A program made the translations under genes and the position numbers. The notes under the pieces were generated by a model. That model searched no databases and had not been told where the DNA came from. It saw only the letters and a list, made by a program, of their open reading frames with translations. A stretch of DNA of 37,809 nt, from IMG/VR virus record IMGVR_UViG_2657245124_000003; one strand, given 5' to 3'. Each line of letters begins with the position of its first letter. Position 1 is the first letter of the stretch. Of the stretch, positions 8,935 through 37,074 are shown piece by piece. Source of the stretch: a virus. Its lineage: Duplodnaviria > Heunggongvirae > Uroviricota > Caudoviricetes.

Positions 8935-9780
8935 ATGACAAAGCCTTCTCATTTTAGAACCCCTCTTCGTTATCCGGGAGGTAAGGCAAAATTCTTGCCA
9001 CATATTGAACAAATACTCCGCAACAATGATCTCATTGGTGGATGTTATGCTGAACCTTATGCAGGTGGAGCCGGTGTAGCATTAGGTTTGCTCCTTAACG
9101 GTCTTGTTGAAAATATCTTCATAAATGATATTGATCCTGCCCTTTATTCTTTTTGGTTTGCAGTGGTTAATCATAACGATCTGTTATGTGAAATGATTGA
9201 TGAAGTTCCTGTGACTATTGAAAATTGGCATACTCAAAAGGAGATACTCCTAAACAATGATAAATATAGTATGCTTGAAGTCGCATTATCAACTTTCTTT
9301 TTAAATAGAACAAACCGTTCAGGAATACTTAAGGCTGGCGTTATTGGAGGGAAAGAACAAAAAGGACCATGGAAGTTAGATGCAAGATTCAACAAAAAAG
9401 AGTTAATTAAAAGGATTGAACTAATTGGTGCATATAAGGAGAAAATTTACGTATCGAATTTTGATGCTGTAGATTTTCTGCTACACCAAAAAGCATTGCT
9501 ACCCCAAAATAGTCTAATATATCTTGATCCACCTTATTATGTTAAAGGAGCAGAGTTATATAGAAATTTTTATAAACATGATGATCATGTAAAAATCGCT
9601 AATACACTACGGGAAATTCAACTACCTTGGGTTGTGTCTTATGACAATGTGCCTGAAATAAAAAGCATATATCATGAATTCAACATGACTGATTATACGC
9701 TTAATTATACTGCACAAGATAAGAAAAAAGGTCTAGAAATTATCATTTATAATCATGGTATAAAAATCCCTGACATTTAA
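8935..9780 (+). CDS. D12-class N6-adenine DNA methyltransferase (Dam-like)
   Basis: 281 aa; motifs YPGGK, EPYAGGAG (FxGxG SAM-binding), FLNRTNRSG and DPPYY (motif IV) in the order characteristic of Dam-family methyltransferases; strongly AT-rich compared with flanking phage genes. Confidence 0.8.
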   Translation: MTKPSHFRTPLRYPGGKAKFLPHIEQILRNNDLIGGCYAEPYAGGAGVALGLLLNGLVENIFINDIDPALYSFWFAVVNHNDLLCEMIDEVPVTIENWHTQKEILLNNDKYSMLEVALSTFFLNRTNRSGILKAGVIGGKEQKGPWKLDARFNKKELIKRIELIGAYKEKIYVSNFDAVDFLLHQKALLPQNSLIYLDPPYYVKGAELYRNFYKHDDHVKIANTLREIQLPWVVSYDNVPEIKSIYHEFNMTDYTLNYTAQDKKKGLEIIIYNHGIKIPDI

Positions 9781-9797
9781 ATTTAAGGATGATATAG

Positions 9798-11495
9798 ATG
9801 ATTAAAGAAATTAGTTTTAAAAAATTTAAGAAACTGATAGATATTGACTTCTCATTCAATGAAGACATCAATATAATATCAGGAACCAATGGGACATGTA
9901 AGACAACATTGCTTCATTTAATTAGCAATGGTTTCCAAATGCCACCATCTCGATCACAAAATTATTCAAATAGTAATTGTGTTAGAGTTATAAAATCTAT
10001 AAACAAAATAGCCAACCCCAAAATGGAAGCAATTGTTAGGGAATCAAAAAATTACACCGATCCGGCAGAGGGAACAAAAGGTGTGTTATTTTCTATTAAC
10101 TATTTGGATCATAGCACACTAGACTTCAGAAAGCACAACTCAAAAAATCCAGACGAAGCGCAACGGTATGCTATCAAACCAGTATACCCACGCGGAAAAG
10201 AAAAACAATCACTTCCAGCTAAACCAGTTTTATATCTTGGATTATCGCGACTATTCCCGATTGGTGAAACTAAAGACGACGCCCTTACAAAAATTCCGTT
10301 AAACCTACCAGAAGAGTATGTTGGTTATATATCGAAAATATATAATGAACTTTTGGGCATTAATATTATAAATATAGAATCAAACAATATCGGAGATTTT
10401 AAAGCTGGCCCATTATTTGATACCGATAACCCAGCAATTGATTCTAATACCATATCATCCGGGGAAGACAATATATTCATTATAATCAAGGCATTAGTTA
10501 GCCTTAGGTATTATTTTGAATCACTTATTCAATCCACTGATCAAAAAGAAAGCATTCTGTTAATAGATGAATTTGATGCCACTTTACATCCTTCTTTACA
10601 GATAAGATTATTAGATAAAATTTATCAATACGCAAAAGATTATAAGATTCAAGTATTTTTCACAACGCACAGTCTGACATTGCTAGAATATGCTTTTCAT
10701 AAAAAATACCATGTTGTCTATCTAATTAACAATATTACAAAGGCTCTGCTTTTAGATAATCCTGACATATTAAAAATAACAATGTATCTGAAAACACAAA
10801 CAAAGGATGAGATATACACAAGGAACAAGATACCAGTTTTCACGGAAGATGAAGAAGCTCGCTTTTTATTTAATGAAATACTTGGTTATTGGATAAGCAA
10901 ATATCCAAATTTTGCTATAGTTAGTAATTCATTTCACTTAATTGATTGTTTCATTGGTGCAGACAATTTAAAAACTATTTTTAATGATTCTCATCTTAAG
11001 GAAACCTCGTTAAAATCAATTTGTATTCTTGATGGAGATCACAGCCCTGAGGATCAGAGAGGAATTATATCACTGCCGGGAGAAAAAGCTCCAGAACAAT
11101 TGATATTTGAGCATTGTGAGCACCTTTATAATACCGACGACTCTTCCTTCTGGGAAAATCAGGATATAATTAACAATGGTTTTTCGAAAGAGTTATACTT
11201 ACTCAAGATACGTCCTCAACTACAATCAATTGAAACTGAAATTCAGAAAAGAAAAGACAACCATGAGTCTACATCCGGTTTAAGAAGAAAATTAAATAAG
11301 AAAATATTCAATCAGCATATTGAATTCTTTAGAATGATTACAAGAAACTGGTTAGACAAACCAGAAAATCAGAAATCTCTCCAGTATTTTTACAATGGAT
11401 TACGATCCTTATTCTACCGGGTTACACCAACAAACGGCATTGACAGAAAAATTTGGGATTTTGACTATAACAAAATCATTAAAGAGGATAAATAA
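9798..11495 (+). CDS. ABC-type ATPase with C-terminal TOPRIM-like region (OLD-family / fused PARIS-like nuclease candidate)
   Basis: 565 aa; Walker A GTNGTCKTT, signature-like SSGEDN, Walker B LLIDEFDATLHP, H-loop FFTTHS; C-terminal region has a conserved acidic patch (VFTEDEE) followed by a DxD-type motif (ILDGDH), consistent with TOPRIM/DUF4435. Only 17 bp from the methyltransferase stop, same strand. Confidence 0.6.
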   Translation: MIKEISFKKFKKLIDIDFSFNEDINIISGTNGTCKTTLLHLISNGFQMPPSRSQNYSNSNCVRVIKSINKIANPKMEAIVRESKNYTDPAEGTKGVLFSINYLDHSTLDFRKHNSKNPDEAQRYAIKPVYPRGKEKQSLPAKPVLYLGLSRLFPIGETKDDALTKIPLNLPEEYVGYISKIYNELLGINIINIESNNIGDFKAGPLFDTDNPAIDSNTISSGEDNIFIIIKALVSLRYYFESLIQSTDQKESILLIDEFDATLHPSLQIRLLDKIYQYAKDYKIQVFFTTHSLTLLEYAFHKKYHVVYLINNITKALLLDNPDILKITMYLKTQTKDEIYTRNKIPVFTEDEEARFLFNEILGYWISKYPNFAIVSNSFHLIDCFIGADNLKTIFNDSHLKETSLKSICILDGDHSPEDQRGIISLPGEKAPEQLIFEHCEHLYNTDDSSFWENQDIINNGFSKELYLLKIRPQLQSIETEIQKRKDNHESTSGLRRKLNKKIFNQHIEFFRMITRNWLDKPENQKSLQYFYNGLRSLFYRVTPTNGIDRKIWDFDYNKIIKEDK

Positions 11496-19814: not shown

Positions 19815-19956
19815 CCCACCCACATGGGGAAACCTCGGAATATGGGGCGACCGCCTTCTGGATGCACTGGAAACCTGTAACGCGGAGAAACGGGCCATTG
19901 CTGAACTGGATAAGAGAATAGCCGAACTGACACACCAGACGGGAGTAACACAATGA
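19675..19956 (+). CDS. o-spanin lipoprotein (LysC/Rz1-like)
   Basis: MNAPTLCLTLVLLTGCAG has a lipobox (LTGC); Pro-rich mature part; overlaps the i-spanin in another frame. Confidence 0.55.
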   Translation: MNAPTLCLTLVLLTGCAGTQNAPRPAPSVRLIPQTLTMPVTPPPFPDPPTWGNLGIWGDRLLDALETCNAEKRAIAELDKRIAELTHQTGVTQ

Positions 19957-21833
19957 CCAGTAAGAACTTTGCACTGATTACAGCCATGACACAGGCTGAA
20001 CTGACCCGGAAAGTGAATGAATATCTTGCGAAGGGGTGGCATCTTCAGGGGGACACACGGGTAGCTTACGAGCCCGGCACCCCGTGGTATCTCATGCAGG
20101 CCATGGTGGCCGATGGTGCCACCGAGACGCCCTCTGAGCCATTACCAAACAACAAGACGCCGGAATGGTACTACGTGGTTGTGCTTGCCGGGCAGTCCAA
20201 CGGCATGGCTTACGGTGAAGGGCTTCCGTTACCGGATTCTTACGATGCTCCGGATCCGCGCATTAAACAGCTGGCGCGCCGCAGTACGGTAACCCCGGGG
20301 GGAGAGGGTTGTACGTATAACGACATCATCCCGGCTGACCACTGTCTGCATGATGTGCAGGATATGAGTACGCTGAATCATCCGAAGGCGGACCTGAGCA
20401 AAGGTCAGTACGGCTGTGTGGGACAGGGACTTCATATTGCCAAAAAACTACTCCCGTATATCCCGAATAACGCGGGGATCCTGCTGGTACCATGCTGTCG
20501 TGGTGGTTCGGCATTCACTCAGGGCGCGGAGGGAACATTCAGTACGACCACGGGGGCCAGCCAGGATTCGGCGCGCTGGGGTGCGGGTAAGCCGTTATAT
20601 CAGGACCTGATCGCACGCACCAAAGCGGCATTACAGAAGAACCCGAAAAATGTGTTGCTGGCGGTGTGCTGGATGCAGGGCGAATTTGACATGAGCGCTG
20701 CCACCTACGCACAGCAACCGGACCTGTTCACGGCCATGCTGAAGCAGTTCCGTACTGACCTTTCCGGATTTAACGCGCAGTGCCATGGCGGCAGTGCTGC
20801 AGTTATACCGTGGATTTGTGGCGACACGACGTATTACTGGAAAAACACATACGGCACACAGTATGACTCCGTCTACGGCGCGTACAAAAACAGGGAGAGC
20901 GACAACGTTTTCTTTGTGCCGTTCATGACCGACGGTAACGGCAACAACACGCCCACCAACTTACCGGCAGAAGACCCGGATATTGCTGATGCAGGTTATT
21001 ACGGCGCGCAATCCCGTAGTAATGGTAATTGGGTATCGTCAAATCGTCCGACACATTTCAGTTCATGGGCGCGCAGGAGCATTATTTCGGATCGCCTGGC
21101 AACCGCTATTCTGAACGCTGTTGGTCGAACCAGCGCCTTCATCAGCGGTACCGCACCGGAGATTAAACCCTCGCCCGGCGGCGACACTCCATCGGGGCCG
21201 TCTGATGGTGACACATCCGTTCGTACAGTCTCCCTGCTGCCGACAGCCGGAGAGGCTGCTGCGCAGGGCTGGACCATCACCGGCGGCAGTGTTGCGCTGG
21301 AAGATGGTGTGTTTAAGGTTACCAAGCAGAGCAATAAAACTTGGTCCCTGATGCATCCGGTGGATGACGCAGTCTCCCTGCTGACACGGGGCGGCAGACT
21401 GAGCTGTAAGTTTCGACTGTCAGGCGCACTGACCAACAACCAGTTCGGTCTGGGAATTTATCTGTATACCGATGTAGCGTTACCTGACGTCGTGGCGATG
21501 ACCGGGACTGGTAACCCGTTCCTGATGTCGTTCTTCACCCAGACCACAGACGGCAAACTGAATCTGATGCATCACAAGAAAGCCGGAAACACAAAGTTGG
21601 GCGAGTTCGGGAATTACAGTAACGACTGGCAGACGCTGGAGCTGGTGTTCACCGCCGGCAGTGCCACGGTTACTCCGAAACTGAATGGAGTGGCTGGCCC
21701 GGCATTCCAGGTCATAAAAGACAGTCTGACACTGGGGCTGAATGCGCTGACGTTAACTGATATCACTAAAAATGCCGCGTACGGCGTCGATATCGGCAGC
21801 CTGGTGCTGGAAATCAATAATCCCGCAGTATAA
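19953..21833 (+). CDS. NanS-p-like esterase: N-terminal DUF1737 domain, SASA/SGNH-type carbohydrate esterase domain, C-terminal lectin-like domain
   Basis: 626 aa; N-terminus MTSKNFALITAMTQAELTRKVNEYLAKGWHLQG matches the DUF1737 pattern of prophage NanS-p proteins; LAGQSNGMAYGEG carries the GQSN block of sialate O-acetylesterases; inserted between the lysis cassette and tail-completion gene R. Confidence 0.6.
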   Translation: MTSKNFALITAMTQAELTRKVNEYLAKGWHLQGDTRVAYEPGTPWYLMQAMVADGATETPSEPLPNNKTPEWYYVVVLAGQSNGMAYGEGLPLPDSYDAPDPRIKQLARRSTVTPGGEGCTYNDIIPADHCLHDVQDMSTLNHPKADLSKGQYGCVGQGLHIAKKLLPYIPNNAGILLVPCCRGGSAFTQGAEGTFSTTTGASQDSARWGAGKPLYQDLIARTKAALQKNPKNVLLAVCWMQGEFDMSAATYAQQPDLFTAMLKQFRTDLSGFNAQCHGGSAAVIPWICGDTTYYWKNTYGTQYDSVYGAYKNRESDNVFFVPFMTDGNGNNTPTNLPAEDPDIADAGYYGAQSRSNGNWVSSNRPTHFSSWARRSIISDRLATAILNAVGRTSAFISGTAPEIKPSPGGDTPSGPSDGDTSVRTVSLLPTAGEAAAQGWTITGGSVALEDGVFKVTKQSNKTWSLMHPVDDAVSLLTRGGRLSCKFRLSGALTNNQFGLGIYLYTDVALPDVVAMTGTGNPFLMSFFTQTTDGKLNLMHHKKAGNTKLGEFGNYSNDWQTLELVFTAGSATVTPKLNGVAGPAFQVIKDSLTLGLNALTLTDITKNAAYGVDIGSLVLEINNPAV

Positions 21834-24777: not shown

Positions 24778-25378
24778 TTCGTTGTTACCACCATCAGCCA
24801 GCAATTTCATGCGTTGTGCCGAAGCCGTCGGAACACGCATTACAGACATTCCGGTAGACCTCAACACGCTGTGGTCGCCGGACACCTGCCCGGTGCATCT
24901 GCTGCCTTATCTCGCCTGGGCGTTTTCCGTTGACCGCTGGGATCGCAACTGGCCGGAAGAGACAAAGCGACAGGTGATTCGTGATGCATGGCTGATACAC
25001 CGACACAAAGGGAGCATCAGCGCACTGCGAAGAGCCGTGGAGCCTCTCGGCTACCTGATTGAAGTAAAGGAGTGGTGGCAACTCAACGAGGAGCCGGGAA
25101 CATTTCGCATTGTTGTCGGAGTACTTGATCAGGGCATCACCGATGAAATGCATCAGGAACTTGAGCGCCTTATTGCGGATGCAAAACCAGTAAGTCGCCA
25201 TCTGACGGGGCTGGCGATCAGCCTGAGTGTGAACGGAAAGATTTTCGTTGGTACGGGATGCTATCACGGCGATGCCCTGACGGTTTATCCCTACACCCCG
25301 GAGTCCATTATTGTCGAAGGGGACTATTTCCCTGCCCCGGCCATTCATTTAATTGATAATCTGAGAGTAAACGCATGA
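24770..25378 (+). CDS. I: baseplate protein (P2 gpI-like)
   Basis: ATG at 24770 overlapping the J stop (MSNSLLPPSASNFMRCAEAV...). Confidence 0.7.
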   Translation: MSNSLLPPSASNFMRCAEAVGTRITDIPVDLNTLWSPDTCPVHLLPYLAWAFSVDRWDRNWPEETKRQVIRDAWLIHRHKGSISALRRAVEPLGYLIEVKEWWQLNEEPGTFRIVVGVLDQGITDEMHQELERLIADAKPVSRHLTGLAISLSVNGKIFVGTGCYHGDALTVYPYTPESIIVEGDYFPAPAIHLIDNLRVNA

Positions 25379-26970
25379 CAGTGAAATACTACGCTATTCT
25401 GACTAATCAGGGCGCGGCACGACTGGCTAACGCGACGATGCTCGGCAGTAAACTGAATCTGACGCAAATGGCCGTTGGTGATGCAAATGGTGTGTTACCA
25501 ACACCAGCCCCTGCACAAACAAAACTGATTAACCAGAAACGCATTGCACCGCTGAATCTTCTGAGTGTTGACCCTAACAATCAGAGCCAGATTATTGCGG
25601 AGCAAATCATCCCTGAAAACGAGGGAGGATTCTGGATCCGTGAGATTGGTCTTTATGATGATGAAGGTGTACTCATTGCGGTGGCAAACTGCCCGGAAAC
25701 GTACAAACCGCAGTTGCAGGAAGGCAGTGGACGCACCCAGACTATCCGCATGATTCTGGTTGTCACGAACACCGAAGCCATCACGCTGAAAATCGACCCG
25801 TCTGTGGTTCTGGCAACCCGCAAATATGTGGATGATAAAATATCAGAGCACGAACAATCACGACGTCACCCGGACGCCTCGCTGACCGTAAAAGGTTTTA
25901 CTCAGTTAAGCAGTGCAATTAACAGTGAATCAGAAACACTGGCCGCAACACCGAAAGCGGTTAAGGCTGCATATGACCTGGCTAACGGGAAATATACCGC
26001 CAAGAACGCCACCACTACACAAAAAGGGATTGTTCAGCTCAGTAGCGCCACGAACAGCACGTCTGAAACGCTGGCAGCGACACCAAAAGCTGTTAAGGCG
26101 GTAATGGATGAAACGAACAAGAAAGCACCATTAAACAGCCCGGCACTGACCGGAACGCCAACAACACCAACAGCGCCACAGGGGGCTAATAGTACCCAGA
26201 TCGCAAGCACGGCTTTCGTTATGGCCGCGATTGCCGCACTTGTAGATTCGTCACCTGATGCACTGAACACGCTGAACGAACTGGCTGCGGCGCTGGGCAA
26301 TGACCCGAATTTTGCGACCACCATGACTAACGCGCTTGCGGGTAAGCAACCGAAGGATGCCACCCTGACGGCGCTGGCGGAGCTTGCTACATCAGCAGAT
26401 AAACTCCCATATTTTACAGGGGCAGATCGTGCCGCGTTAACCGCGTTGACAAGTGTTGGACGTGCCATTCTTGGTAAAACCAGCACTCAGGGAGTTCTTG
26501 ATTACCTTGGTTTAGGAGAAGGTTCTGCACTGCCCGTTGGTGTGCCCGTTCCGTGGCCCTCAGCAACACCACCAACGGGCTGGCTGAAATGTAACGGTGC
26601 AGCATTTTCTTCTGAAATGTACCCCAAACTGGCAAAAGCCTACCCCACCAATAAATTACCGGATTTACGCGGTGAATTTATCCGTGGCTGGGATGATGGG
26701 CGCGGGGTGGATGCCAGAAGGGGCATCTTAAGCATGCAGGGGTGGTTAACAGGAAGTCATTATCATAATATTCGGTCATGGGACGCGTGGGATAACACGG
26801 TACTGGTGCCAAATGACAAAGGAGGGGATAGTCTGTTGTCGACAGATAACGCCGTCCGGCAAGGTGCAATTAACGGTAGATTTACCAGTCAATACAGAAC
26901 GGAATCCTCAGAGGGGAATGAAACCCGCCCACGCAATATTGCCTTCAATTATATTGTGAGAACCGCATAA
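25375..26970 (+). CDS. H: tail fibre protein (P2 gpH-like) with collar domain and variable C-terminal tip
   Basis: 531 aa; repeated ETLAATPKAVKA tail-fibre repeat motifs; C-terminal Phage_Tail_Collar-like segment GWLKCNGAAFSSEMYPKLAKAYPTNKLPDLRGEFIRGWDDGRG; ends ...RPRNIAFNYIVRTA. Confidence 0.8.
   Translation: MTVKYYAILTNQGAARLANATMLGSKLNLTQMAVGDANGVLPTPAPAQTKLINQKRIAPLNLLSVDPNNQSQIIAEQIIPENEGGFWIREIGLYDDEGVLIAVANCPETYKPQLQEGSGRTQTIRMILVVTNTEAITLKIDPSVVLATRKYVDDKISEHEQSRRHPDASLTVKGFTQLSSAINSESETLAATPKAVKAAYDLANGKYTAKNATTTQKGIVQLSSATNSTSETLAATPKAVKAVMDETNKKAPLNSPALTGTPTTPTAPQGANSTQIASTAFVMAAIAALVDSSPDALNTLNELAAALGNDPNFATTMTNALAGKQPKDATLTALAELATSADKLPYFTGADRAALTALTSVGRAILGKTSTQGVLDYLGLGEGSALPVGVPVPWPSATPPTGWLKCNGAAFSSEMYPKLAKAYPTNKLPDLRGEFIRGWDDGRGVDARRGILSMQGWLTGSHYHNIRSWDAWDNTVLVPNDKGGDSLLSTDNAVRQGAINGRFTSQYRTESSEGNETRPRNIAFNYIVRTA
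26495..26520 (+). promoter_or_regulatory. hix/gix-like recombination (crossover) site inside the tail fibre gene
   Basis: TTCTTGATTACC-TT-GGTTTAGGAGAA: two 12-bp imperfect inverted half-sites around a 2-bp core, resembling the Hin/Gin/Cin site consensus (..AAACC-NN-GGTTT..); encodes the DYLGLGEG junction. Confidence 0.5.
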
Positions 26971-27581
26971 TGAATAACGCGATATTAAATGATGACCTTA
27001 TTGCCGTACAGGCAGGAAACATCGTCGTTTATAACTATGATGGTGAGACACGGGAATATATTTCCGAATCAACTGAATATCTTGCTGTGGGTGTTGGTAT
27101 TCCGGCTAATTCCTGTTTAGATGCCCCAGGCGCACATAAATCTGGCTATGCTATTCGCCGTTCGGAGGATTTAAATTCATGGGAGTATGCGCCAGACCAT
27201 CGTGGTGAAACCGTCTATAGCACTGACACGGGAAACACCGAAGAAATCACGGCGCTGGGTGACTACCCGAAAAATACAACCACTATCGCCCCGTTAACAC
27301 CATACGATAAATGGGATGGTGAAAAATGGGTGACAGATACTGAGGTACAACATCGTGCCGCAGTAGAAGCGGCAGAAACCAAGCGCCAGTCACTGGCTGA
27401 TGCGGCAATGGATTCCATAAGTCTGATTCAGTTGAAGTTGCGGGCCGGGCGGAAGTTGACGCAGGCAGAAACCACCCGGCTTAATGCCGTGCTGGATTAT
27501 ATAGACGCGCTGAACGCAATGGATATAAACATGGCACCAGATATCAACTTGCCGGAAATACCACTGGCATCAGCCAGTTGA
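26970..27581 (+). CDS. G: tail fibre assembly chaperone (P2 gpG/Tfa-like)
   Basis: 203 aa; C-terminal region (LNAVLDYIDALNAMDINMAPDINLPEIP) of typical Tfa type; immediately follows H. Confidence 0.7.
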   Translation: MNNAILNDDLIAVQAGNIVVYNYDGETREYISESTEYLAVGVGIPANSCLDAPGAHKSGYAIRRSEDLNSWEYAPDHRGETVYSTDTGNTEEITALGDYPKNTTTIAPLTPYDKWDGEKWVTDTEVQHRAAVEAAETKRQSLADAAMDSISLIQLKLRAGRKLTQAETTRLNAVLDYIDALNAMDINMAPDINLPEIPLASAS

Positions 27582-27587
27582 ATATAA

Positions 27588-28064
27588 CTAAGCCGCCCTC
27601 ACGATATAGTTAAATGCAATATTGCGGGGGCGGGTTTCACTACCACCTGTGTTACCAATACTTCCTCGTGAATGAAGCGTTGGTGATGGAATCAAACTCC
27701 CTCCTGTATTTGTGGCATCAAGCCCCCTGCCTTGTGTATATGTTTTTTTGAAAATCGTAGCCAACTCCCATTCATCTTTTGTGTCATATCCATCGTTAGC
27801 TACAACAATATGGCGGTGTTTTTCCAACATCCCGTTTTGAATGCTCAATAAAGCGCGTGCCGCATCAATTCCTCGCCCATCATCCCAGCCACGGATAAAT
27901 TCTCCGCGTAAATCCGGTAATTTATTGGTGGGGTAGGCTTTTGCCAGTTTGGGGTACATTTCAGAAGAAAATGCTGCACCGTTACATTTCAGCCAGCCCG
28001 TTGGTGGTGTTGCTAAGGGCCATGGAACAGGCACACCAACGGGCAGTGCAGAGCCTTCCCCCAA
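27588..28064 (-). other. silent tail-fibre C-terminal cassette 1 (collar domain plus variable tip; no ATG start)
   Basis: Begins at the LGEGSALPVGVPVPWP... junction (TTG called as start), shares about 68 aa with the H collar region, then a unique tip, ending RPRNIAFNYIVRAA; crossover-like site TTCCCCCAAACCAACGTTTTCATGC at 28056-28080. Confidence 0.7.
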
Positions 28065-28074
28065 ACCAACGTTT

Positions 28075-28578
28075 TCATGCGGCTCTTACGATGTAATTGA
28101 ATGCAACGTTGCGAGGGCGAGTTTCTGTACCTACATTTCCACTAATTTTACCAAACTGTTTTATATTACGAGAGCTAATGGCTCGTAGTGAGGAAGGCAC
28201 CCTTAAACCGGGTTCGTCTGTTTTAACTATTCCCCCGTCCCCGTATGTAGCCAGTATTCCAGGGTTTAATCCTTCCCGTGCACTTTCCACGGCAAGTCCG
28301 TTCCCGGTCCATAATTCCATATAGTGTGCATGATCCAAAATTGTGTGTGGCTGCCAATTAAGCAAAGCGCGGCCAGCATCCACCCCGCGCCCATCATCCC
28401 AGCCGCGAATAAATTCTCCCCGTAAATCCGGTAATTTATTTGCGGGGTAGGCTTTTGCCAGTTTGGGGTACATTTCAGAAGAAAATGCTGCACCATTGCA
28501 TTTCAGCCAGCCCGTTGGTGGTGTGGCTGAGGGCCATGGAACGGGCACACCAACAGGCAGCGCAGAACCTTCCCCCAA
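28075..28578 (-). other. silent tail-fibre C-terminal cassette 2
   Basis: Same conserved N-terminal collar segment and C-terminal RPRNVAFNYIVRAA with a different middle region; crossover-like site at 28570-28594 overlapping the stop of cassette 3. Confidence 0.7.
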
Positions 28579-28588
28579 ACCAACGTTT

Positions 28589-29017
28589 TCATGCTGCCCT
28601 TACGATGTAATTAAACGCAATATTACGAGGACGAATGGTTACATAATTGACCCCATCACCTCGTGAAGGCCCTGCAAATGAAAAACGGGAAAAGCTTGGT
28701 TGGTTAGAAACAATTTGGTCATAGTTATTGATTGAATGACCAGACCCAATGTCGAAATTACCTCCGTAATGAGAAAAACTTGTACCATCCTGCCCTGAAA
28801 GCAGGGTACGTCCCGCATCAATCCCGCGCCCATCATCCCAGCCACGGATAAATTCACCGCGTAAATCCGGTAATTTATTGGTGGGATAAGCCCTTGCCAG
28901 TCTGGGATACATTTCAGAAGAAAATGCTGCGCCGTTACATTTCAGCCACCCCGTTGGTGGTGTTGCTGAGGACCACGGAACGGGCACACCAACGGGCAGC
29001 GCAGAGCCTTTCCCCAA
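28589..29017 (-). other. silent tail-fibre C-terminal cassette 3
   Basis: Same architecture; crossover-like site at 29009-29033. Confidence 0.7.
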
Positions 29018-29027
29018 ACCAACGTTT

Positions 29028-29591
29028 TCATGCTGCCCTTACGATGTAATTAAACGCAATGTTGCGTGGGCGGTTTTCGTTTGCAGTTGGAACAATTTTT
29101 GAAGCATCAAGGCCAATCACTTTTGGGTAAACAACGCCGTCTGTCCTTTCTGTCACCATACTTCTGACTAAGGAGAAATAACTATTGTTTGTTGAGGAAT
29201 TTAAAGGCACCACTGCCCCCTTAAACGAGCCTACTGATTCCCATATTGAATAATTTTCAGTGTTTACAGTCTTGAACTCACCATAGATATTACGTATGGC
29301 ATCACCTTGAGCGGATAATATTGTTCTCCCCGCATCCGCACTACGTCCATCATCCCAGCCACGAATAAATTCACCCCGTAAATCCGGTAATTTATTGGTG
29401 GGGTAAGCCTTTGCCAGTCCGGGATACATTTCAGAAGAAAATGCTGCGCCGTTACATTTCAGCCAGCCCGTTGGTGGTGTTGCTGAGGGCCACGGAACGG
29501 GCACACCAACAGGCAGCGCAGAACCTTCCCCCAAACCAACGTTTTCGTTTTTATCCCTACCTATACCAACTATGTATTTTTCACGAAACAA
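29028..29591 (-). other. silent tail-fibre C-terminal cassette 4
   Basis: Same architecture; the conserved segment starts at about 29534; crossover-like site at 29526-29551; the upstream extension to 29591 is probably not translated. Confidence 0.65.
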
Positions 29592-29605
29592 AGAGGATGT
29601 TTTTT

Positions 29606-30205
29606 ATGCAAATTGGCTATATTCGTGTGTCAACAAATGACCAGAACACGGATTTACAACGCAATGCACTGAACTGCGCAGGATGTGAACTGATTTTTGA
29701 AGATAAAATCAGCGGAACGAAATCAGCCAGACCGGGATTGAAAAAACTGCTCAGAACGCTATCAGAAGGAGATACGCTGGTTGTCTGGAAGCTGGACAGA
29801 CTGGGCAGAAGTATGAAACACCTGATCACGCTTATTGAGGAATTGCGGGAAAAAGGTGTTAATTTCCGTAGTCTGACGGACAGCATTGACACATCAACAC
29901 CCATGGGGCGTTTCTTTTTTCACGTCATGGGGGCTTTAGCCGAAATGGAACGTGAATTAATTGTAGAGCGTACACTGGCCGGGCTGGCAGCAGCACGCGC
30001 ACAAGGACGCATTGGCGGACGTCGCCCGAAGTTGACAAAAGAACAACACGAGCAAATAGCGAGGCTGATTAAAAACGGTCATGACAGGAAACAACTGGCG
30101 ATCATTTACGACATCGGCATATCGACGATTTATCGTTATCACCCTGTAGGCGATATACAGGCTGAAGAAACAACCAGGCAGACTCAGGAAAATGAAAACC
30201 GCTAA
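29606..30205 (+). CDS. serine recombinase, DNA invertase (Hin/Gin/Cin/Pin family)
   Basis: 199 aa; MQIGYIRVSTNDQNTDLQRNAL...VVWKLDRLGRSMKHLI...C-terminal HTH (GISTIYRY) is the resolvase/invertase signature with the catalytic Ser in the IRVST motif. Confidence 0.85.
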   Translation: MQIGYIRVSTNDQNTDLQRNALNCAGCELIFEDKISGTKSARPGLKKLLRTLSEGDTLVVWKLDRLGRSMKHLITLIEELREKGVNFRSLTDSIDTSTPMGRFFFHVMGALAEMERELIVERTLAGLAAARAQGRIGGRRPKLTKEQHEQIARLIKNGHDRKQLAIIYDIGISTIYRYHPVGDIQAEETTRQTQENENR

Positions 30206-30224
30206 TCTGACCATTAGCGGTTTT
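30195..30224. terminator. bidirectional hairpin between convergent invertase and gpU genes
   Basis: aaaaccgctaat-ctgacc-attagcggtttt, perfect 12-bp arms with A/T runs on both sides. Confidence 0.6.
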
Positions 30225-30231
30225 GCGTTAA

Positions 30232-30726
30232 TCAAAACAGCCCTTTAACGGAGCTGGCCGCGCTGTTAAGGGATGATGTGACCTTATCTTTGAAGCCGGA
30301 CAGCATATCACTGAACGATGAGGATTGCAGGCGCTCCCGCAAATCCTCATCACAGCGTTCAAGAGTCAGTGAAAATTCTATCTTTTTCGCCTTACCGTAG
30401 CGATCAAACTCGGAGCGGGTCGTATTCGTTCCGGTCAGGACATACATGCCGTAAATCTGCCCGACACCATCAATCAGAGGCCAGGGGCGTCCTGTATATG
30501 CCTGCGAGGTCAGCAACGAAAGCGACACTTCGCCACCTGTAATTTCAGGATAAAGCACACCAGAAAGAACGATGCGATCATCGCCTGCCCCGATATACTG
30601 CCAGCTTGCTGAACGGTTAACGCGTTCATTTTTCACATGCCGCCAGCTTTTGTTTTGCTGTAACTGCTGATGCGGCAACGTGCGCAGCTCAAAAACAAAC
30701 ATGCCATAGATCATCATCATGGCCAT
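30232..30726 (-). CDS. U: tail protein (P2 gpU-like)
   Basis: 164 aa (P2 U is 159 aa); directly downstream of the tape measure on the same strand. Confidence 0.75.
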   Translation of the reverse strand: MAMMMIYGMFVFELRTLPHQQLQQNKSWRHVKNERVNRSASWQYIGAGDDRIVLSGVLYPEITGGEVSLSLLTSQAYTGRPWPLIDGVGQIYGMYVLTGTNTTRSEFDRYGKAKKIEFSLTLERCDEDLRERLQSSSFSDMLSGFKDKVTSSLNSAASSVKGLF

Positions 30727-30732
30727 GACTCC

Positions 30733-33576
30733 TCAATCTTTATCGTAAAAACTGCCACGCCCGGCACGGGCGCGCCGTTCCATCTCTGCCCTGACCATTT
30801 CACCGACCAGTTTCGCCAGTTCGCGGGGATTCTGTGTAACAACGTTATGCAGATGAACATGAATTTCACCACCAAATCCGGAGGCAACAGGCTCCCGGTT
30901 ACGGGAAGTTACAGGAACTGATGCCACTGGAGATCGTATGGCCTCCGCCACCGGGCGGGAGCTGGCCGCAACAACAGGGACCAGCGCCGGAGGCAGCGGA
31001 GCCGGGACCACGGGTGTGATATTAATTGCGGGGGCAGGCTTACTGGCCTGCGCAATCTTCCGCTCCTGCCACTCCCCACGAACAGCAAGTGCTCGGGGCA
31101 GGTTTTTAAAGACAATATCGCCGGGGCCAATGCGTTTTTTCGTCTCCTCAACCAGCTTACCTGTGTTATCAGCAATTTTGCTGAGTCTGCGTAGCGTCCC
31201 GGTATTGCTGTCTGTGAGCGGTTTGTTGTCTTTGGGTTTATCACCTCCGGTGCCATTGCCATTTTCCACAGGCTTCGGCGGATTGATTTTCGCCAGGTCC
31301 CCTTGAAGTAAGGCAACCTTGTCCTGAAGAATGGCCGCACGCTGTGCGTCTTCGATTTTCTTTCTCGCCCTTTCCGCTTCATCCGGAAGAACACCGAGTT
31401 TTTCAAGTATCCACGCCAGCGTATCCAGCAACATTTTTGCAGGCGTCAGAACAAGCTGTAACGCGCCACCAAGAACGTTACCGAATATCTCGCCAGCACT
31501 GGTACATTTATCCAGCGTTTCCTTGCTGGACTCCATCGGTGACAGCAGCGATTTAAACCAGTTAAACACCTGGCTGATCCCGCTTCCGATTGCGTCAAAA
31601 ACAGGGCCAAACCGTTCAAAGGTTTCACGCAACGGGTTCAGCCTTTCCATAATCCCGCTGAACACCCCGGCAAAAAATGCCCTGATGGGATCCCAGTATT
31701 TCCAGATAAGAACGGCAGCGCCGGCAAGCGCAGCCACGATAAGACTAACCGGACTGAACAGCGCCCCGATAGCTCCTCCCAGCAAAGAAACAGAACCCGT
31801 CACCATTCCCCACAGCGCAGGCAACACCCTGATGACATTCATTGACCGGGTAAGAATGTCGAAACCAAGACGCAAGGTGGCCAGCTTCCCGTAAAGCACC
31901 CCAATAACCAGCGACAACGAGCCAATCGTTGCAGTCATTGCCAGCAACGCACCGCCTGCTATCAGTAGCTGGCGCGTCAGTACCGGATGGGCCTGCGCCA
32001 GCGAGGTGATTTTTTCAAGCACCCGCGTGAGCCACTGCGTGACAGAACGCAGCGGACCGTCAACCAGATCACTGATGCGAATACGAAGACCTTCCCATGC
32101 GCTGTCGAGATTTTTCAGGTCTCCATCAAGATTATCGGCCATTACTTTTGCAACGCGATCGGCCTCTCCCCTTGCCCCCTGCAATTCTCTGGTCAGTTTT
32201 TGCAGTTCTCCTGAACCAGCCGCCGCAACAAGCGTCTGCAAACCAACGAACGCCTCTTCTCCGGCGATGTCCTTGAAGAAGGAGACCTGGTCTACCTGTC
32301 CGTATTTTTGTGTCGCCTTATAGAGATCAAGCAGCACATCCTCCATCGGGCGCATTTTGCCTCTGGCGTCAGCAACTGACACCCCCAGCTCTTTCAGTGC
32401 ATCAGCCGCAGCTTTTGGCGGTGATGCAAGGCGGGACAGACTTGCGCGCATGGCCGTACCAGCATCGCTTCCGCGAAGACCATTATTGGCAAGCATCCCG
32501 GCCATGGCCGCCGCTTCTTCAAGACTGATACCAAGTTTTGCGGCAACCGGACCGGTATACTTCATGGTTTCGCCCAGCGCGCGTAAATCAGTATTGGTCC
32601 GGGTGAATGCTGCTGTCAGCGTATCGCCAACCCGGTCCATTTGATCGGCTGTCAGGTTGAACTGTGTGAGGATATTGGAGCCTATATCAGCCGTCTCGCC
32701 GAGTTCGACGCCACCTGCCAGCGCCATATTAAGAACACCGGGCAATGCGGCCTGAATGGCCTGCGGAGTAAAACCAGCCATTGCCAGAAAGCTCTGCCCA
32801 CTGGCGGCATCACTCGCAGTAAACTGTGTTTCAGAACCAAGTTTTAACGCCTGCTCACGCAGCGCCTTAAACTGCGGGCTGTTTTTGTCGATTCGCGTCA
32901 GTGCCTGAACGCGGGACATCTCTTTGCCGAACCCGATCGCAGGCTGCAAAAAACGCCCGGCAGCATAGCCGCCAGCCGCTGCAGCACCAATTGCCAGCGC
33001 ACCACCTGTTTTCAGTTTTCCCGCGGTTTCCTGCGCGCGCGAATACCGCTCACGCGCCCGCGTTACACGCGCAAGCGCCTGCCGTTCGCGTTCAAGCTGG
33101 TTGTTGTACTGTTCGGTGCGTCTGATGGCCTGCTGGATGGTGTTATCGCTGCCTGTCAGGGAAATGCCGTGGCGTTTCAGCTCTCCGCCAAGTTCCCGCA
33201 TTTTCTGAATTTCCCGTGTGCGCGATTCATTCAGGCGTTCAAGCCGGCTGCTTAACTGCTGCATCAGCTTTTGTTGTTTTTCGCTGAGCACTGTACCCGT
33301 GCGTTGTAACTGATTAAGGGCGTTAAGCTGGCGTCGTGCTTTCACGATACCCGCATCCGCTTTACTGACAGCGTCGCGGGCGCGCTCAAATGAACGCGCC
33401 TGACGCTCGAGATTTTTGATCGCCCCCTGCGTTCGCTGGATGGAGTCACCAAACTGCCCCATCAGGCGGCGGGCGTTTTCGGCAGGCCGGGTCAGCCTGT
33501 CAACGGCGCTGAAAGCGACCCGGATATCAAGAGTCTTCATTGTCTGCACTCCCGCTGCGAAGTGCCGCCCGCTCAC
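30733..33576 (-). CDS. T: tail tape measure protein (P2 gpT-like)
   Basis: 947 aa; coiled-coil-rich N-terminus, Ala/Gly-rich hydrophobic central region, typical tape-measure composition. Confidence 0.8.
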   Translation of the reverse strand: MSGRHFAAGVQTMKTLDIRVAFSAVDRLTRPAENARRLMGQFGDSIQRTQGAIKNLERQARSFERARDAVSKADAGIVKARRQLNALNQLQRTGTVLSEKQQKLMQQLSSRLERLNESRTREIQKMRELGGELKRHGISLTGSDNTIQQAIRRTEQYNNQLERERQALARVTRARERYSRAQETAGKLKTGGALAIGAAAAGGYAAGRFLQPAIGFGKEMSRVQALTRIDKNSPQFKALREQALKLGSETQFTASDAASGQSFLAMAGFTPQAIQAALPGVLNMALAGGVELGETADIGSNILTQFNLTADQMDRVGDTLTAAFTRTNTDLRALGETMKYTGPVAAKLGISLEEAAAMAGMLANNGLRGSDAGTAMRASLSRLASPPKAAADALKELGVSVADARGKMRPMEDVLLDLYKATQKYGQVDQVSFFKDIAGEEAFVGLQTLVAAAGSGELQKLTRELQGARGEADRVAKVMADNLDGDLKNLDSAWEGLRIRISDLVDGPLRSVTQWLTRVLEKITSLAQAHPVLTRQLLIAGGALLAMTATIGSLSLVIGVLYGKLATLRLGFDILTRSMNVIRVLPALWGMVTGSVSLLGGAIGALFSPVSLIVAALAGAAVLIWKYWDPIRAFFAGVFSGIMERLNPLRETFERFGPVFDAIGSGISQVFNWFKSLLSPMESSKETLDKCTSAGEIFGNVLGGALQLVLTPAKMLLDTLAWILEKLGVLPDEAERARKKIEDAQRAAILQDKVALLQGDLAKINPPKPVENGNGTGGDKPKDNKPLTDSNTGTLRRLSKIADNTGKLVEETKKRIGPGDIVFKNLPRALAVRGEWQERKIAQASKPAPAINITPVVPAPLPPALVPVVAASSRPVAEAIRSPVASVPVTSRNREPVASGFGGEIHVHLHNVVTQNPRELAKLVGEMVRAEMERRARAGRGSFYDKD

Positions 33577-33795
33577 GCCAGCTAACCACTTCGCCGGGCG
33601 TCATCATGAAGATTTCGGCGGGCGACCAGTTAAAAATAACGGCAATATCTGCCACAAAGTCTTCTATGTGCTCAAAGCACACAACCGTGATCAGGCTTCC
33701 GTCGCCTGTTCGTTCTTCCCGCCAGAGTCCGCACCGCTCAAAAAATTTACGGCAACCGCACATAACTGAATAAAGTCACGGGATGCCATTTTTTT
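33527..33795 (-). CDS. gpE' extension, reached by programmed -1 frameshift from E (E+E' fusion)
   Basis: An A7 run on the sense strand (plus coordinates 33789-33795) lies where the -1 frame (ORF 33527..33763, extending upstream) is open and overlaps the T start, as in P2 E/E' and lambda G/GT. Confidence 0.4.
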
Positions 33796-34056
33796 GATCG
33801 TCACTTCATCCAGTCGCGGTGATGTCACGCGTGACAGCAGCGTAAACATGGATTCCGCTTTCAGATTCAGCACATCAGACAGCGACAAATCTCGCAGAGA
33901 TCCAGCCTGCTCAATAGCTCCGGTGATCTCCACATACGTGATTTTTTCGCCGCCTCGCTCAATTGGTTGGGTAAGTTTTACGCCACGCTCACTGGTTTCT
34001 TTCACAGTGTCAGCAACGACCGTGTTTTCGGTATCGATGTTTTTCGTCTCTTTCAT
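33691..34056 (-). CDS. E: tail assembly chaperone (P2 gpE-like), zero-frame product
   Basis: Position between the tail tube gene and the tape measure; acidic protein. Confidence 0.6.
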   Translation of the reverse strand: MKETKNIDTENTVVADTVKETSERGVKLTQPIERGGEKITYVEITGAIEQAGSLRDLSLSDVLNLKAESMFTLLSRVTSPRLDEVTIKKMASRDFIQLCAVAVNFLSGADSGGKNEQATEA

Positions 34057-34110
34057 CAGGAAACTCCTTTCAGTCAGAGGCGACGCACTGCGCCGCCTGC
34101 ATATTACTTA

Positions 34111-34623
34111 TCAGCCAAGCCCAAGCGCGGAACGGATGCGATCGGGCACAATGTCCTTGCCGTCCTTCCGGTAAATGAAGTTCAGCAGGTCAATCTCCCA
34201 CAACGGGCGATCGTTAACACTCAGCTTGTAGTAGGTGTTTTTAATGGCGTAAGTGTGTGATGTGGCTTCGCCCTGTTTGGCTTCCCCCATATCAATTTCC
34301 GTCACACGTCCGCGCATCTCGATTTCATACAGATCGCTTTCTGCATCGGTGTAGTATTCACCCGCAAAACGCAGCAGCGTGCCGTCAATCGTGCCGCCAT
34401 ATTTAAGGAACAGCGCACGAACAGCTCCCCCCATAACAAAACTCGCATCAAGCGCGGAGTCGTCCAGACCGAGATCAATACTTACCGCCCCCATCATGCC
34501 ACCACCACGATAGCTGTCGGTTTTGCGCGTCAGTTTAGGCAGGGTGACGGACGTCACCTTACCCACTTCGTTTTCACCATCCACAAACAGCGTAAAAAAG
34601 CGAAGATGTTTTGGTACAGCCAT
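34111..34623 (-). CDS. FII: tail tube protein (P2 gpFII-like)
   Basis: 170 aa (P2 FII is 172 aa); follows the sheath gene. Confidence 0.8.
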   Translation of the reverse strand: MAVPKHLRFFTLFVDGENEVGKVTSVTLPKLTRKTDSYRGGGMMGAVSIDLGLDDSALDASFVMGGAVRALFLKYGGTIDGTLLRFAGEYYTDAESDLYEIEMRGRVTEIDMGEAKQGEATSHTYAIKNTYYKLSVNDRPLWEIDLLNFIYRKDGKDIVPDRIRSALGLG

Positions 34624-35807
34624 CAGACACCTCCCAGCACCGCAAATGCGGGACCAAAGAATTCATCAGTAAACGACTGGTAAAGCTCCATGTCTTCCAG
34701 CGGGGGAACAGGCGTATATTTGTAGCGAATACGCACACGCCCCTGACGTAAATTCGTGGTGCCGTTATCCACCACGTCATACCAGCACGACGCCCCAATC
34801 AGTTTCCCGGCAGTAACCAGTGAATCCAGTTTTGCCCTGATGGCACTGATAACATCTTTCACGTTCGCAGGCGTCAGTGGACTGTCGATGGTTTCAAACT
34901 GCGCTTCCGCAATTGAATCAGCCAGCACCTGTGCGGTTCGGGTATACACCTCAAAGATGTAGGCGTTCGTTTCCGGTGTGCGGTTGCCCCAGAAGCGGAA
35001 CCCGTTGCGACGAATAATGGTCGTGATTTCTTTGTTGTTGAGGCTGTTGGCATCGCTGTCTTCGGCCTGCAACGACCAGAACACATGCCTGGACATCCCC
35101 AGCACATTTTTAACCGGAACGTTGGACAGTGATTTGTGCCATCCCTGCTCATGGTCAATGTACGCACGAAGGCCGCACGCATAGGCAGGCGCGGGGAACG
35201 TTTCGTTTTTGCCACTTTTCGGGTTGTAGGCGATGAAGTCCGGCCATAAGAGCATCACCTCACGTTCGTTGAATTTCTGGCGGTAGGTAATCACCTCAGC
35301 CATCGTGTTACAGCCGTGACATGAGGCATACACAAACGCGCGCAGTTTACCCGCAATCACGCACAGGGATTTTGTCACCGCCTCCGTGTCCAGCTCCGGC
35401 GCGGCCAGAATACGCGGACGGTATCCGATGCTTTCATCCTGCTCTGCAACAAGCAGCGCATACATCCCCGTATAGCTGCCGTCAGATTCAGAACCACCGA
35501 TAACCAGTTGATCCTGCGTCTTTCCGTCTTCTTCTTTGTGTTCAGCCACGCGAACGACGATCACCTTTGTGCTCACCTGGTCTGCGATGGCCTTAAGCGC
35601 ACGATAAAGCGTCCCCGTTGTCCCGCATTTTCCCAGCACGTCATTGACGCGGGTCAGCAGTGTGGGCTTGTTCAGCGGGAACAGCTTCGCGTCCGCATCA
35701 TCCGCCGTTGCCACGATACCGATAACGCTGGAATCAACATCGTTAATCGCTGTTACCAGGTCGGTATTTTCCGTAACACGGGCACCATGAAAACGAGTTT
35801 CACTCAT
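34623..35807 (-). CDS. FI: tail sheath protein (P2 gpFI-like)
   Basis: 394 aa; blocks such as FPLNKP, LRAF.YASCHGC, EQGWHK.LSNV, RRNGFRFWGNRT, YTRTAQV, YTPVPPLE match the P2 FI sheath protein from memory. Confidence 0.85.
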   Translation of the reverse strand: MSETRFHGARVTENTDLVTAINDVDSSVIGIVATADDADAKLFPLNKPTLLTRVNDVLGKCGTTGTLYRALKAIADQVSTKVIVVRVAEHKEEDGKTQDQLVIGGSESDGSYTGMYALLVAEQDESIGYRPRILAAPELDTEAVTKSLCVIAGKLRAFVYASCHGCNTMAEVITYRQKFNEREVMLLWPDFIAYNPKSGKNETFPAPAYACGLRAYIDHEQGWHKSLSNVPVKNVLGMSRHVFWSLQAEDSDANSLNNKEITTIIRRNGFRFWGNRTPETNAYIFEVYTRTAQVLADSIAEAQFETIDSPLTPANVKDVISAIRAKLDSLVTAGKLIGASCWYDVVDNGTTNLRQGRVRIRYKYTPVPPLEDMELYQSFTDEFFGPAFAVLGGV

Positions 35808-35964
35808 AGCTTTAGCCCCTTGTATCCGTTAAATGATTCGGCAACAATCATCACCCACCACGCGCGTAATCTCACCCCTGTGCCGTTCTCCCGATCCGGC
35901 GACAACAAAAAGCAGTAACCCCCTCCGCACGCACATGCGACCATGCCGCACAGGGAGGGAACAG

Positions 35965-37074
35965 ATGACCGATACCACCATGCAATTGCTCAGTCAGGGC
36001 ACAGACCCCGTGAAAATGCCGGATTTTGATATTCTCGCGGAGGGTAAAACGCTGTCAGGCGTGGCAGAGCGCCTGATGAGCCTGTCACTGACCGACAACC
36101 GGGGATTTGACGCGGACCAGCTCACCATCACGCTGGATGATGCGGATGGTCAGTTGCAGCTACCGCCACGGGGCGCGCGCCTGACGGTTCTCATTGGCTG
36201 GAAAGGAGAACCGCTGACAGAAAAAGGCACTTACATTGTTGATGAAATCGCTCACGAAGGACCGCCGGACAGGCTGACTGTTTCAGCCAGAAGCGCAGAT
36301 TTTCGGGATGAATTTAACGTTAAACGTGAGGTGTCCTGGCATGATGTGACCGTTGAGCGTGTGGTATCCGCCATCGCTCATCGGTATGGTCTGAAACCGC
36401 AAATCAGCGAAATGCTGATGGATATCGAAATCGACCACGCCGACCAGACCGAAGAAAGCGACATGTCCTTCCTTACGCGCATGGCGGAAATGCTGGGCGC
36501 AATCACCACGGTAAAAAGCGGTAATCTGTTATTCATTATGCCAGGCGGTGGCGTGAACGCACAGGGCCAGCCGTTGCCATCGTTCGCCATCACGCGCAGC
36601 AGTGGCGATCGCCATCAGTTCCGCATTGCTGACCGCGAAGCGTATACGGGGGTACGCGCTTACTGGCTTGATCTTAATTACGGGAAAAAGAAAAAAGTCA
36701 GCGTGAAACACCGCAAACCGCCAAAACCCAAAAAGGAGAAAAGCAGCAGCCGTGAAGGTGATTATATGGAAGGCGCGGAAGGCAATGTGTTTGTGTTACG
36801 CAAGACTTATCAGAACGAGCAGGCAGCAAGACGCGCAGCGGCGGCAAAGTGGCAGCAGCTACAACGCGAAGCCGCATCATTCTCCATCACGCTGGCATGT
36901 GGTCGTGCAGAACTCTACCCCGAAATGCATGGCACGGTAACAGGATTTAAAAGCGAGATTGATAATCAGGACTGGATTATTGCAAAAGCCGAGCACACCA
37001 TCGATAACAGCGGCTTTACCACGCAGCTTGAGCTTGAGGCAAAAATCCCGGAATGGATAGCAGAAACAGAGTGA
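35965..37074 (+). CDS. D: tail protein D (P2 gpD-like, late control gene D)
   Basis: From ATG at 35965 after GGGAGGGA; LSLTDNRGFDADQLTITLDDADGQ, SARSADFR, EVSWHD, FLTRMAE, NSGFTTQLELE match P2 D. Confidence 0.8.
   Translation: MTDTTMQLLSQGTDPVKMPDFDILAEGKTLSGVAERLMSLSLTDNRGFDADQLTITLDDADGQLQLPPRGARLTVLIGWKGEPLTEKGTYIVDEIAHEGPPDRLTVSARSADFRDEFNVKREVSWHDVTVERVVSAIAHRYGLKPQISEMLMDIEIDHADQTEESDMSFLTRMAEMLGAITTVKSGNLLFIMPGGGVNAQGQPLPSFAITRSSGDRHQFRIADREAYTGVRAYWLDLNYGKKKKVSVKHRKPPKPKKEKSSSREGDYMEGAEGNVFVLRKTYQNEQAARRAAAAKWQQLQREAASFSITLACGRAELYPEMHGTVTGFKSEIDNQDWIIAKAEHTIDNSGFTTQLELEAKIPEWIAETE

Follow-up and report, generated by a model that had tools for sequence, protein, structure and literature searches.

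How many alternative tail fibres can one prophage hold in store, and does the DNA that encodes them really change places? This question is raised by IMG/VR virus record IMGVR_UViG_2657245124_000003, a stretch of 37,809 nucleotides (nt) which, at its full length, is called the window here. In one part of it (the module, 25375-30205) a tail-fibre gene, H, is followed by a tail-fibre assembly gene, tfa, by four cassettes stored on the opposite strand and by a gene for a serine DNA invertase (Table 1). The window prophage is P88-like (Xuanwuvirus, Peduoviridae), with 94-96% identity to phages P88 and 500465-2 over the structural genes. With high confidence we regard the locus as a Min-type multiple DNA-inversion system by which this P88-like (P2-type) Escherichia coli prophage changes the receptor-binding end of its tail fibre.

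According to the mechanism that we propose, a Gin-like serine invertase would bind 26-bp sites, cut at their central TT and exchange strands between any two opposed sites. One such site lies in frame inside H and four lie at the heads of cassettes that are stored on the opposite strand and lack a promoter and a start codon. When the segment between the H site and a cassette site is inverted, the constant N-terminal part of H, 374 residues long, would be joined seamlessly (DYL/GLGEG) to a new module of 143-169 residues. Each module comprises a conserved 70-residue collar half, a variable distal insert, which is the presumed receptor binder, and a conserved last strand, which probably completes the collar as it does in T4 gp37. 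Recombination among the internal sites would reshuffle the store, and the five sites would give 48 arrangements and five alternative fibres. A breadth-first enumeration of the reachable arrangements returned 4 for three sites, 48 for five sites and 240 for six sites.

The structural part of this scheme had been put forward in an original prediction made from the DNA letters alone, and all of its structural claims stood up. The hix/gix-like site that it placed in H is a 26-bp site of the Gin/Hin type (12 + TT + 12), the four tightly packed inverted cassettes were recovered in the open reading frame (ORF) map, each headed by a matching TT-core site, and the serine invertase gene was identified by its Pfam Resolvase and HTH_7 domains. 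The five alternative fibres proposed there are likewise supported structurally, as there are five sites and five intact in-frame tips, namely the tip currently fused to H (family T153) and the silent families T159, T168, T143 and T169. What had escaped the prediction was that a single tfa gene accompanies all five tips. A repeat finder also detected four inverted repeats of 211-240 nt, 90-92% complementary, which pair positions 26499-26738 of H with each cassette head and are far beyond chance.

Evidence that inversion actually takes place comes from natural isomers. Enteropathogenic E. coli (EPEC) E2348/69 has an orthologous locus with 97% identity to the window, and two assemblies of this lineage (L001 and L002) carry it in different arrangements, one in the order H-T153, tfa(+), T159(-), T143(-), invertase and the other in the order H-T143, T159(+), tfa(-), T153(-), invertase. 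The flanks of the two are 100% identical, and the 2,000 bp from core to core are 100% identical to the reverse complement. This inversion fuses H to the last cassette and puts tfa, together with the old tip, on the other strand. Ten loci that were fetched by the exact window invertase protein (L004-L013) contain arrays of 2-8 sites in many arrangements. L003/L008, L004, L006, L011 and L012 represent single or double inversion products; in one double product H-T156 is followed by T153(+)-tfa(+) and then by three minus-strand cassettes. In published PCR and long-read work, loci of this type were seen to flip inside cultures (E2348/69, PMC4272514; E. coli EC958, PMC4134206; an Enterobacter phage, PMC13418256). 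The predicted event, in which inversion between the H site and a cassette site fuses the H N-terminus to a new tip, is thus seen both at the orthologous locus and at loci with an identical invertase.

Two of the ten loci with the identical invertase, L007 and L013, are classical two-state switches, in which two tips oppose each other, one of the collar type and one of the Gp53-like_C type, each accompanied by a separate tfa. The same enzyme therefore operates two-state as well as multi-cassette designs.

The invertase itself shows the domain organization of small serine recombinases of the Din family, with an N-terminal catalytic domain (Pfam Resolvase, E 1.5e-51), including the catalytic-serine motif GYIRVSTNDQ, and a C-terminal helix-turn-helix (HTH_7). 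It matches the Mu Gin structures 4M6F/3UJ3 with E 3e-91 and about 75% identity, as counted from the printed alignment. The exact protein is found in 7224 blocks of the assembly collection.

Several observations weigh against the switch as we read it. That the window copy itself keeps inverting is something we infer from its relatives. No sigma-70 promoter was predicted upstream of the invertase gene, and the signs of a recombinational enhancer are suggestive only. A single Fis-like 15-mer (+94 to +108) is common to the invertase gene and Mu gin, and a simple Fis-motif scan of the invertase gene gave an ambiguous result for a second Fis site, with no clear one at the expected spacing. Synonymous-codon identity among 11 invertase genes amounts to 0.62-0.77 over nt 1-120 and to about 0.47 further on; this raised conservation at the 5′ end suggests an enhancer, with which it is compatible without being specific to one. 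Dependence of the inversion on Fis and on such an enhancer is presumed. Frameshifted cassettes occur in the related arrays L006, L009, L010 and L011, i.e. such loci can decay. Furthermore, half of the isomers have tfa directed away from the late operon, and a hairpin separates the convergent gpU operon from the array, which leaves a uniform supply of Tfa unexplained.

The lack of a predicted promoter and the frameshifts in some related arrays, together with the ground-state arrangement of the window, in which every silent cassette is inverted, would also be expected of a frozen relic. In this case the array would have been built earlier by the invertase, the window copy would no longer flip, either because the invertase is silent or weak or because the enhancer has been lost, and the cassettes would be unexpressed passengers. 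We consider this improbable. The invertase ORF is intact and its product is identical to that of strains with many arrangements, the five sites retain the TT core and good half-sites, and all cassettes are intact.

A switch of the kind proposed requires crossover at the sites, and their sequences speak to this point. A pattern search of the whole window found exactly five 12 + TT + 12 sites (s0 to s4) and the motif nowhere else. All five have the TT core and half-sites of the form TTCNNNNAAACC / GGTTTNNNNGAA, as is typical of Din-family sites, and they match the Din-family consensus printed in PMC4134206. They share their architecture with gix, which reads TTATCCAAAACC TC GGTTTACAGGAA in the Mu genome; s0 resembles gix and is nearly identical to a prophage site of E. 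coli EC958 (...ATTACC TT GGTTTAGGAGAA; PMC4134206). The minus-strand sites have the form (A/C)GCATGAAAACG TT GGTTTGGGG(G/A)AA, with the exception of s4, whose left half deviates (Table 1). Since the left halves of s1-s3 consist of the last codons and the stop codon of the neighbouring cassette (GCA TGA), the spacers between cassettes measure only 10 bp.

H and the cassettes become similar precisely from the TT core onward: leftward 18-24 of 32 bases differ, rightward 18-24 of 216. In every related locus, chromosomal or on a P1-like plasmid, the left half-site TTCTTGATTACC occupies the H position, and the left half AA[AG]ACGAAAACG is invariably invertase-proximal in the chromosomal loci. Across 14 related loci each left half-site keeps its place and it is the variants of the right half-site, with A or G at positions 19 and 22, that follow the tips, as is predicted by exchange at the core and not by random homologous crossovers within a 216-nt repeat. 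RecA-dependent homologous recombination between the 216-nt inverted repeats might come to mind as an alternative to site-specific inversion, because these repeats are long, 90-92% identical, and because the crossover between the two E2348/69 assemblies could only be bounded to site positions 11-49. However, the core is exactly where homology stops, the tips are accompanied from locus to locus by polymorphisms located 5-8 bp from it, a dedicated Gin-family invertase always adjoins the array, and deletion of gin locks a comparable locus (PMC13418256). We therefore give this route very little credit.

If the silent cassettes serve as alternative ends of H, they should be maintained as coding sequence, as the original prediction had claimed. 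The five modules are open from the base after the core to the stop codon (153, 159, 168, 143 and 169 amino acids (aa), respectively), and all window cassettes read through in frame without a frameshift, which does not fit decayed pseudogenes. Each module has about 70 conserved residues, close to the common collar segment of about 68 aa proposed earlier, followed by about 60-85 variable residues and the conserved end RPRN(I/V)AFNYIVR(A/T)A. None of the five module heads has an ATG, in line with the earlier claim of start-less cassettes, and the listed TTG "starts" are the Leu codon of GLGEG within the site. The conserved 70-codon segments differ mostly at synonymous positions, as had been noticed, with ratios of non-synonymous to synonymous substitution rates (dN/dS) of 0.05-0.24 in all ten pairwise comparisons. 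As these low values could partly reflect gene conversion with the expressed copy, the variable parts were also compared, per tip family, across the 14 related loci. Here the ratio of non-synonymous to synonymous differences per site (pN/pS) was 0.03-0.35 in six tip families, with 0.12 for T159 and 0.22 for T169. Judged by these comparisons, each of the five tips is an intact in-frame sequence on which purifying selection acts. That the cassettes are independent small genes for free collar-domain proteins is hardly credible, because, although ORF callers give TTG-initiated ORFs and RefSeq lists coding sequences annotated as "phage tail protein" (142-187 aa), their "start" is a Leu codon in the recombination site, ATG and Shine-Dalgarno sequences are lacking, the spacers are 10 bp long, and the same modules occur fused to H in the isomers.

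The variable part of T168 (28075-28581), which makes up a seventh family, behaves differently when it is compared with an allele that is identical in L010 and L011, as 9 non-synonymous and 0 synonymous changes were counted, e.g. N94G, V98A and E99G. The T168 allele of a P1-like plasmid (L051) has most of the same amino-acid changes. Although two alleles make a small sample, this pattern gives a hint of diversifying selection acting on the surface that presumably binds the receptor.

Among the arrays that encode the same invertase, L010 (1503-5947), L009 (4008), L006 (5946) and L011 (5947) contain cassettes that are frameshifted or truncated. In L010 even the expressed H fusion ends early, 100 residues past the site. 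Either some of these arrays are decaying or the damage reflects assembly errors in repeats.

A comparison of the tips with known receptor-binding domains, which the original prediction had proposed as a check, was carried out as a search against sequences of solved structures. The tips match the tip of the T4 long tail fibre gp37 (2XGF; phmmer E 9e-16, profile 7e-19), the alignment covering the N-terminal segment and the extreme C-terminus (NIAFNYIVRLA). They match the short tail fibre 9CUY over the whole tip (E 2e-18, profile 1e-21) and T4 gp12 more weakly. A HxH motif is present just past the collar segment in three tips, T153, T159 and T168. By sequence comparison, the tips thus share the plan of the T4 gp37/gp12-type collar, in which an N-terminal segment and the last strand enclose an inserted distal part. 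Both cassette ends are conserved because together they probably form one collar domain, the variable part being the distal insert. The tips presumably differ in receptor specificity.

The arrangement of tfa does not follow the usual pattern. There is one tfa gene for five tips, four of which have no linked tfa. In every locus where T153 was found, tfa is joined to it, whatever the orientation; one of these T153 copies, that of L009, is cut down to 28 aa. A cross-species scan of close relatives with two peptide patterns showed that a collar tip in other species nearly always has a tfa of its own behind it. The Tfa proteins of three different collar tips are almost identical in their C-terminal half and differ in their N-terminal half. 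A modular model of Tfa has been described, in which a variable N-terminal domain binds the fibre and a conserved C-terminal domain drives trimerisation (PMC9608196).

We rejected, as the sole model, that tfa is expressed only in plus orientation and is needed by every tip, because T159 is always convergent with tfa and never co-oriented in the enumerated arrangements, yet it is conserved (pN/pS 0.12). Read-through from the convergent gpU/tail operon is an unlikely source of tfa transcripts because of the hairpin that stands right after gpU. This hairpin is likely to be the terminator of gpU and possibly acts in both directions. A second hairpin lies within the end of gpU (both are inside 30195-30256), and the two hairpins probably insulate the cassette array from the tail operon. 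Consequently, the four tips either can do without this Tfa or are provided with Tfa in trans or by a route that does not depend on orientation. A more speculative proposal, which we rate as possible rather than probable, is that the array breaks the rule of an own Tfa for each tip in that short collar tips may not require a dedicated Tfa for their folding, or in that the conserved C-terminal half of one Tfa serves the shared collar of all tips irrespective of orientation; as part of the same proposal, the module may be an open cassette library, in which P88-like prophages and co-resident P1-like phage-plasmids exchange tips by means of the sites that they have in common and of their near-identical invertases. 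If any part of the locus can teach something new about fibre folding, it is the single-tfa design.

How does the locus relate to known inversion systems? Goldberg et al. (2014) described a "shufflon" in a P2-like prophage of E2348/69 with three inverted repeats, inversions of about 1,800 and about 2,200 bp and three C-termini, and validated four coexisting variants by polymerase chain reaction (PCR) (PMC4272514). Four is also the number of arrangements that our enumeration gives for three sites. The distances between the cores of L001, 1,561 and 2,000 bp, plus one 216-bp repeat, match the published inversion sizes, and because of this agreement the published locus is very probably the ortholog of the window locus. 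It shares the sites, tfa, the invertase position and the tips T153, T159 and T143 with the window. It differs in having three tips and four arrangements, whereas the window adds T168 and T169 and thereby reaches five tips and 48 arrangements. For EC958, Forde et al. (2014) reported PacBio contigs with alternative orientations of collar-type fibre segments in prophages and tabulated the 26-bp sites (PMC4134206); one of these prophages, Phi2, has the same site type as the window as well as PacBio isomers. A 2026 paper described a three-tip tail-fibre shufflon in Enterobacter phage FR-phi, with gin downstream, whose deletion locks the locus (PMC13418256). Using long-read quantification and locked mutants, the authors showed that the isoforms differ in infectivity and that just one of the three infected the Enterobacter strain tested, with FhuA as the receptor (PMC13418256). 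FR-phi is likened to the window by description; it is another phage of another host and has fewer tips.

The closest class is formed by Min of p15B and by arrays of P1-like elements. These have more than two 26-bp sites, overlapping invertible segments, one constant 5′ part of the fibre gene with many 3′ ends, and an adjoining Din-family serine invertase. The window shows the same design with five sites, four segments, five tips and 48 arrangements. The P1-like plasmid p50EVA-2 carries nine sites of the same type, one tfa, all five tip families of the window and an invertase (UniRef Q05517_ECOLX) that is 97% identical. DNA homology between p50EVA-2 and the window sets in about 150 nt upstream of s0, at 26341, and continues as far as 30149 with 77-95% identity. 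Overall, the module is 85-95% identical to arrays of P1-like phage-plasmids, and phage vB_EcoM-673R5 has a similar five-site array. According to PMC6906374, P1-like plasmids are the home of the p15B Min system. Identity with Min itself we infer through the arrays of P1-like plasmids. The window differs from Min of p15B in its host element, which is a chromosomal P88-like prophage and not a P1-like plasmid, and in having five sites instead of six. Min of p15B gives 240 isomers, which equals our enumeration for six sites.

Mu G, P1 C, e14 P and P88 also use a Gin-family invertase and 26-bp gix-like sites for an in-frame swap of the fibre C-terminus. Each of them has a pair of sites and a pair of alternatives, and every alternative is accompanied by a tfa of its own, whereas the window has five collar-type alternatives and one tfa and is thus not a two-state switch. 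P88 itself carries the classical Mu-like pair S-U / U'-S', with the invertase at the same genomic position as in the window. The R64 shufflon (PilV, Rci) is comparable by analogy only, as a multi-cassette inversion store of alternative C-termini for one surface adhesin. It depends on the tyrosine recombinase Rci and sfx repeats and acts on a conjugative pilus adhesin, in contrast to the serine invertase and gix-like sites of the window.

Of 5426 complete E. coli genomes, 247 contain the conserved segment. The number of copies per genome has a median of 3 and reaches 14 at most, and chromosomes and plasmids carry it in about equal measure, so that there is nothing exceptional about an array of five sites. 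T168 was found in 163 of these 5426 genomes, on chromosomes and on P1-like plasmids. The original description was right to call the locus a Min/shufflon-like multi-cassette array in a P2-type tail, in view of the identities to P1-like arrays (85-95%) and between invertases (97%). The novelty that it implied was overstated, since a three-tip version of very probably the same locus was shown in 2014 and arrays of up to nine sites exist in RefSeq E. coli genomes. New here are the five tips in a P88-like host element; the kind of system is well described and has been demonstrated experimentally, very probably including the orthologous locus. The gain over what is known is therefore small, as the mechanism and even the orthologous locus had already been demonstrated.

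The locus nevertheless shows how a temperate phage may hedge its host range, with one shaft, five stored receptor-binding ends and 48 DNA arrangements. Loci of this kind give rise to assembly artefacts, to mis-annotation of cassettes as separate "phage tail protein" genes and to confounded prophage typing. Tips with a conserved junction (DYL/GLGEG) form a natural modular set with which P2-type phages or tailocins could be retargeted.

The features of the module are listed in Table 1. The constant 5′ part of H has about 88% nucleotide identity with P2 gene H over part of its length, and the ATG of tfa overlaps the stop codon of H/T153 (TAATG).

Table 1. Features of the tail-fibre inversion module, in window coordinates
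Feature	Position	Strand	Basis or remarks
Tail-fibre gene H	25375-26970	+	ORF map; Pfam Phage_tail_fib, Phage_fiber_2, Collar
Constant 5′ part of H (baseplate-attachment domain and shaft repeats, up to the crossover)	25375-26506	+	Pfam Phage_tail_fib E 3e-62, Phage_fiber_2 repeats
Site s0, inside H, codons for LDYLGLGE	26495-26520	+	TTCTTGATTACC TT GGTTTAGGAGAA
Expressed tip, family T153	26509-26970	+	Collar segment, variable distal part with HYH motif, conserved C-terminal strand ending RTA
tfa, tail-fibre assembly (chaperone) gene, sole copy	26970-27581	+	Pfam Caudo_TAP E 1e-30
Silent cassette 1, family T159, 159 codons intact	27588-28067	-	Collar (Pfam); convergent with tfa, 6 bp apart; frame terminates at 27588
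Site s1	28056-28081	-	CGCATGAAAACG TT GGTTTGGGGGAA; left half is last codons and stop of cassette 2 (GCA TGA)
Silent cassette 2, family T168, 168 codons intact	28075-28581	-	Collar (Pfam); frame terminates at 28075
Site s2	28570-28595	-	Pattern search
Silent cassette 3, family T143, 143 codons intact	28589-29020	-	Collar (Pfam); frame terminates at 28589
Site s3	29009-29034	-	Right half GGTTTGGGGAAA
Silent cassette 4, family T169, 169 codons intact	29028-29537	-	Collar (Pfam); frame terminates at 29028
Site s4, fixed outer boundary beside the invertase gene	29526-29551	-	AAAACGAAAACG TT GGTTTGGGGGAA
Serine DNA invertase (Gin/Cin/Pin/Min family), outside the invertible DNA, 199 codons	29606-30205	+	Pfam Resolvase and HTH_7
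Candidate Fis-binding recombinational enhancer (putative)	29606-29725	+	5′ end of the invertase gene
Hairpin, 12-bp stem (AAAACCGCTAAT...ATTAGCGGTTTT)	30195-30224	reported on -	Overlaps the invertase stop; between the convergent invertase and gpU genes

A 37-nt direct repeat, D2 (26288 and 27250, 73% identical), was rejected because it looks like chance. Outside the module, the gpA replication gene (5924-8749) is separated from the portal gene by a region (8935-11495) that contains a D12-class adenine methyltransferase (PADLOC PD-Lambda-5_B, E 9e-122) and, after it, a 565-aa AAA_15/OLD-like ATPase, for which the best matches, all of them weak, were HEC-04, PtuA, AriA and GajA. This pair is likely to be anti-phage defence cargo in the classical P2 old/tin hotspot. 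In the late region, a 626-aa ORF (19953-21833) with DUF1737, SASA (sialate O-acetylesterase-type) and DUF6645 domains may encode a prophage-carried carbohydrate esterase. The sheath, tube, E, T and U tail genes (30232-37074) are located on the minus strand and converge on the invertase gene, with gene D beyond them on the plus strand. This P88-type order of tail genes differs from that of P2 and thereby places the invertase between convergent late operons.

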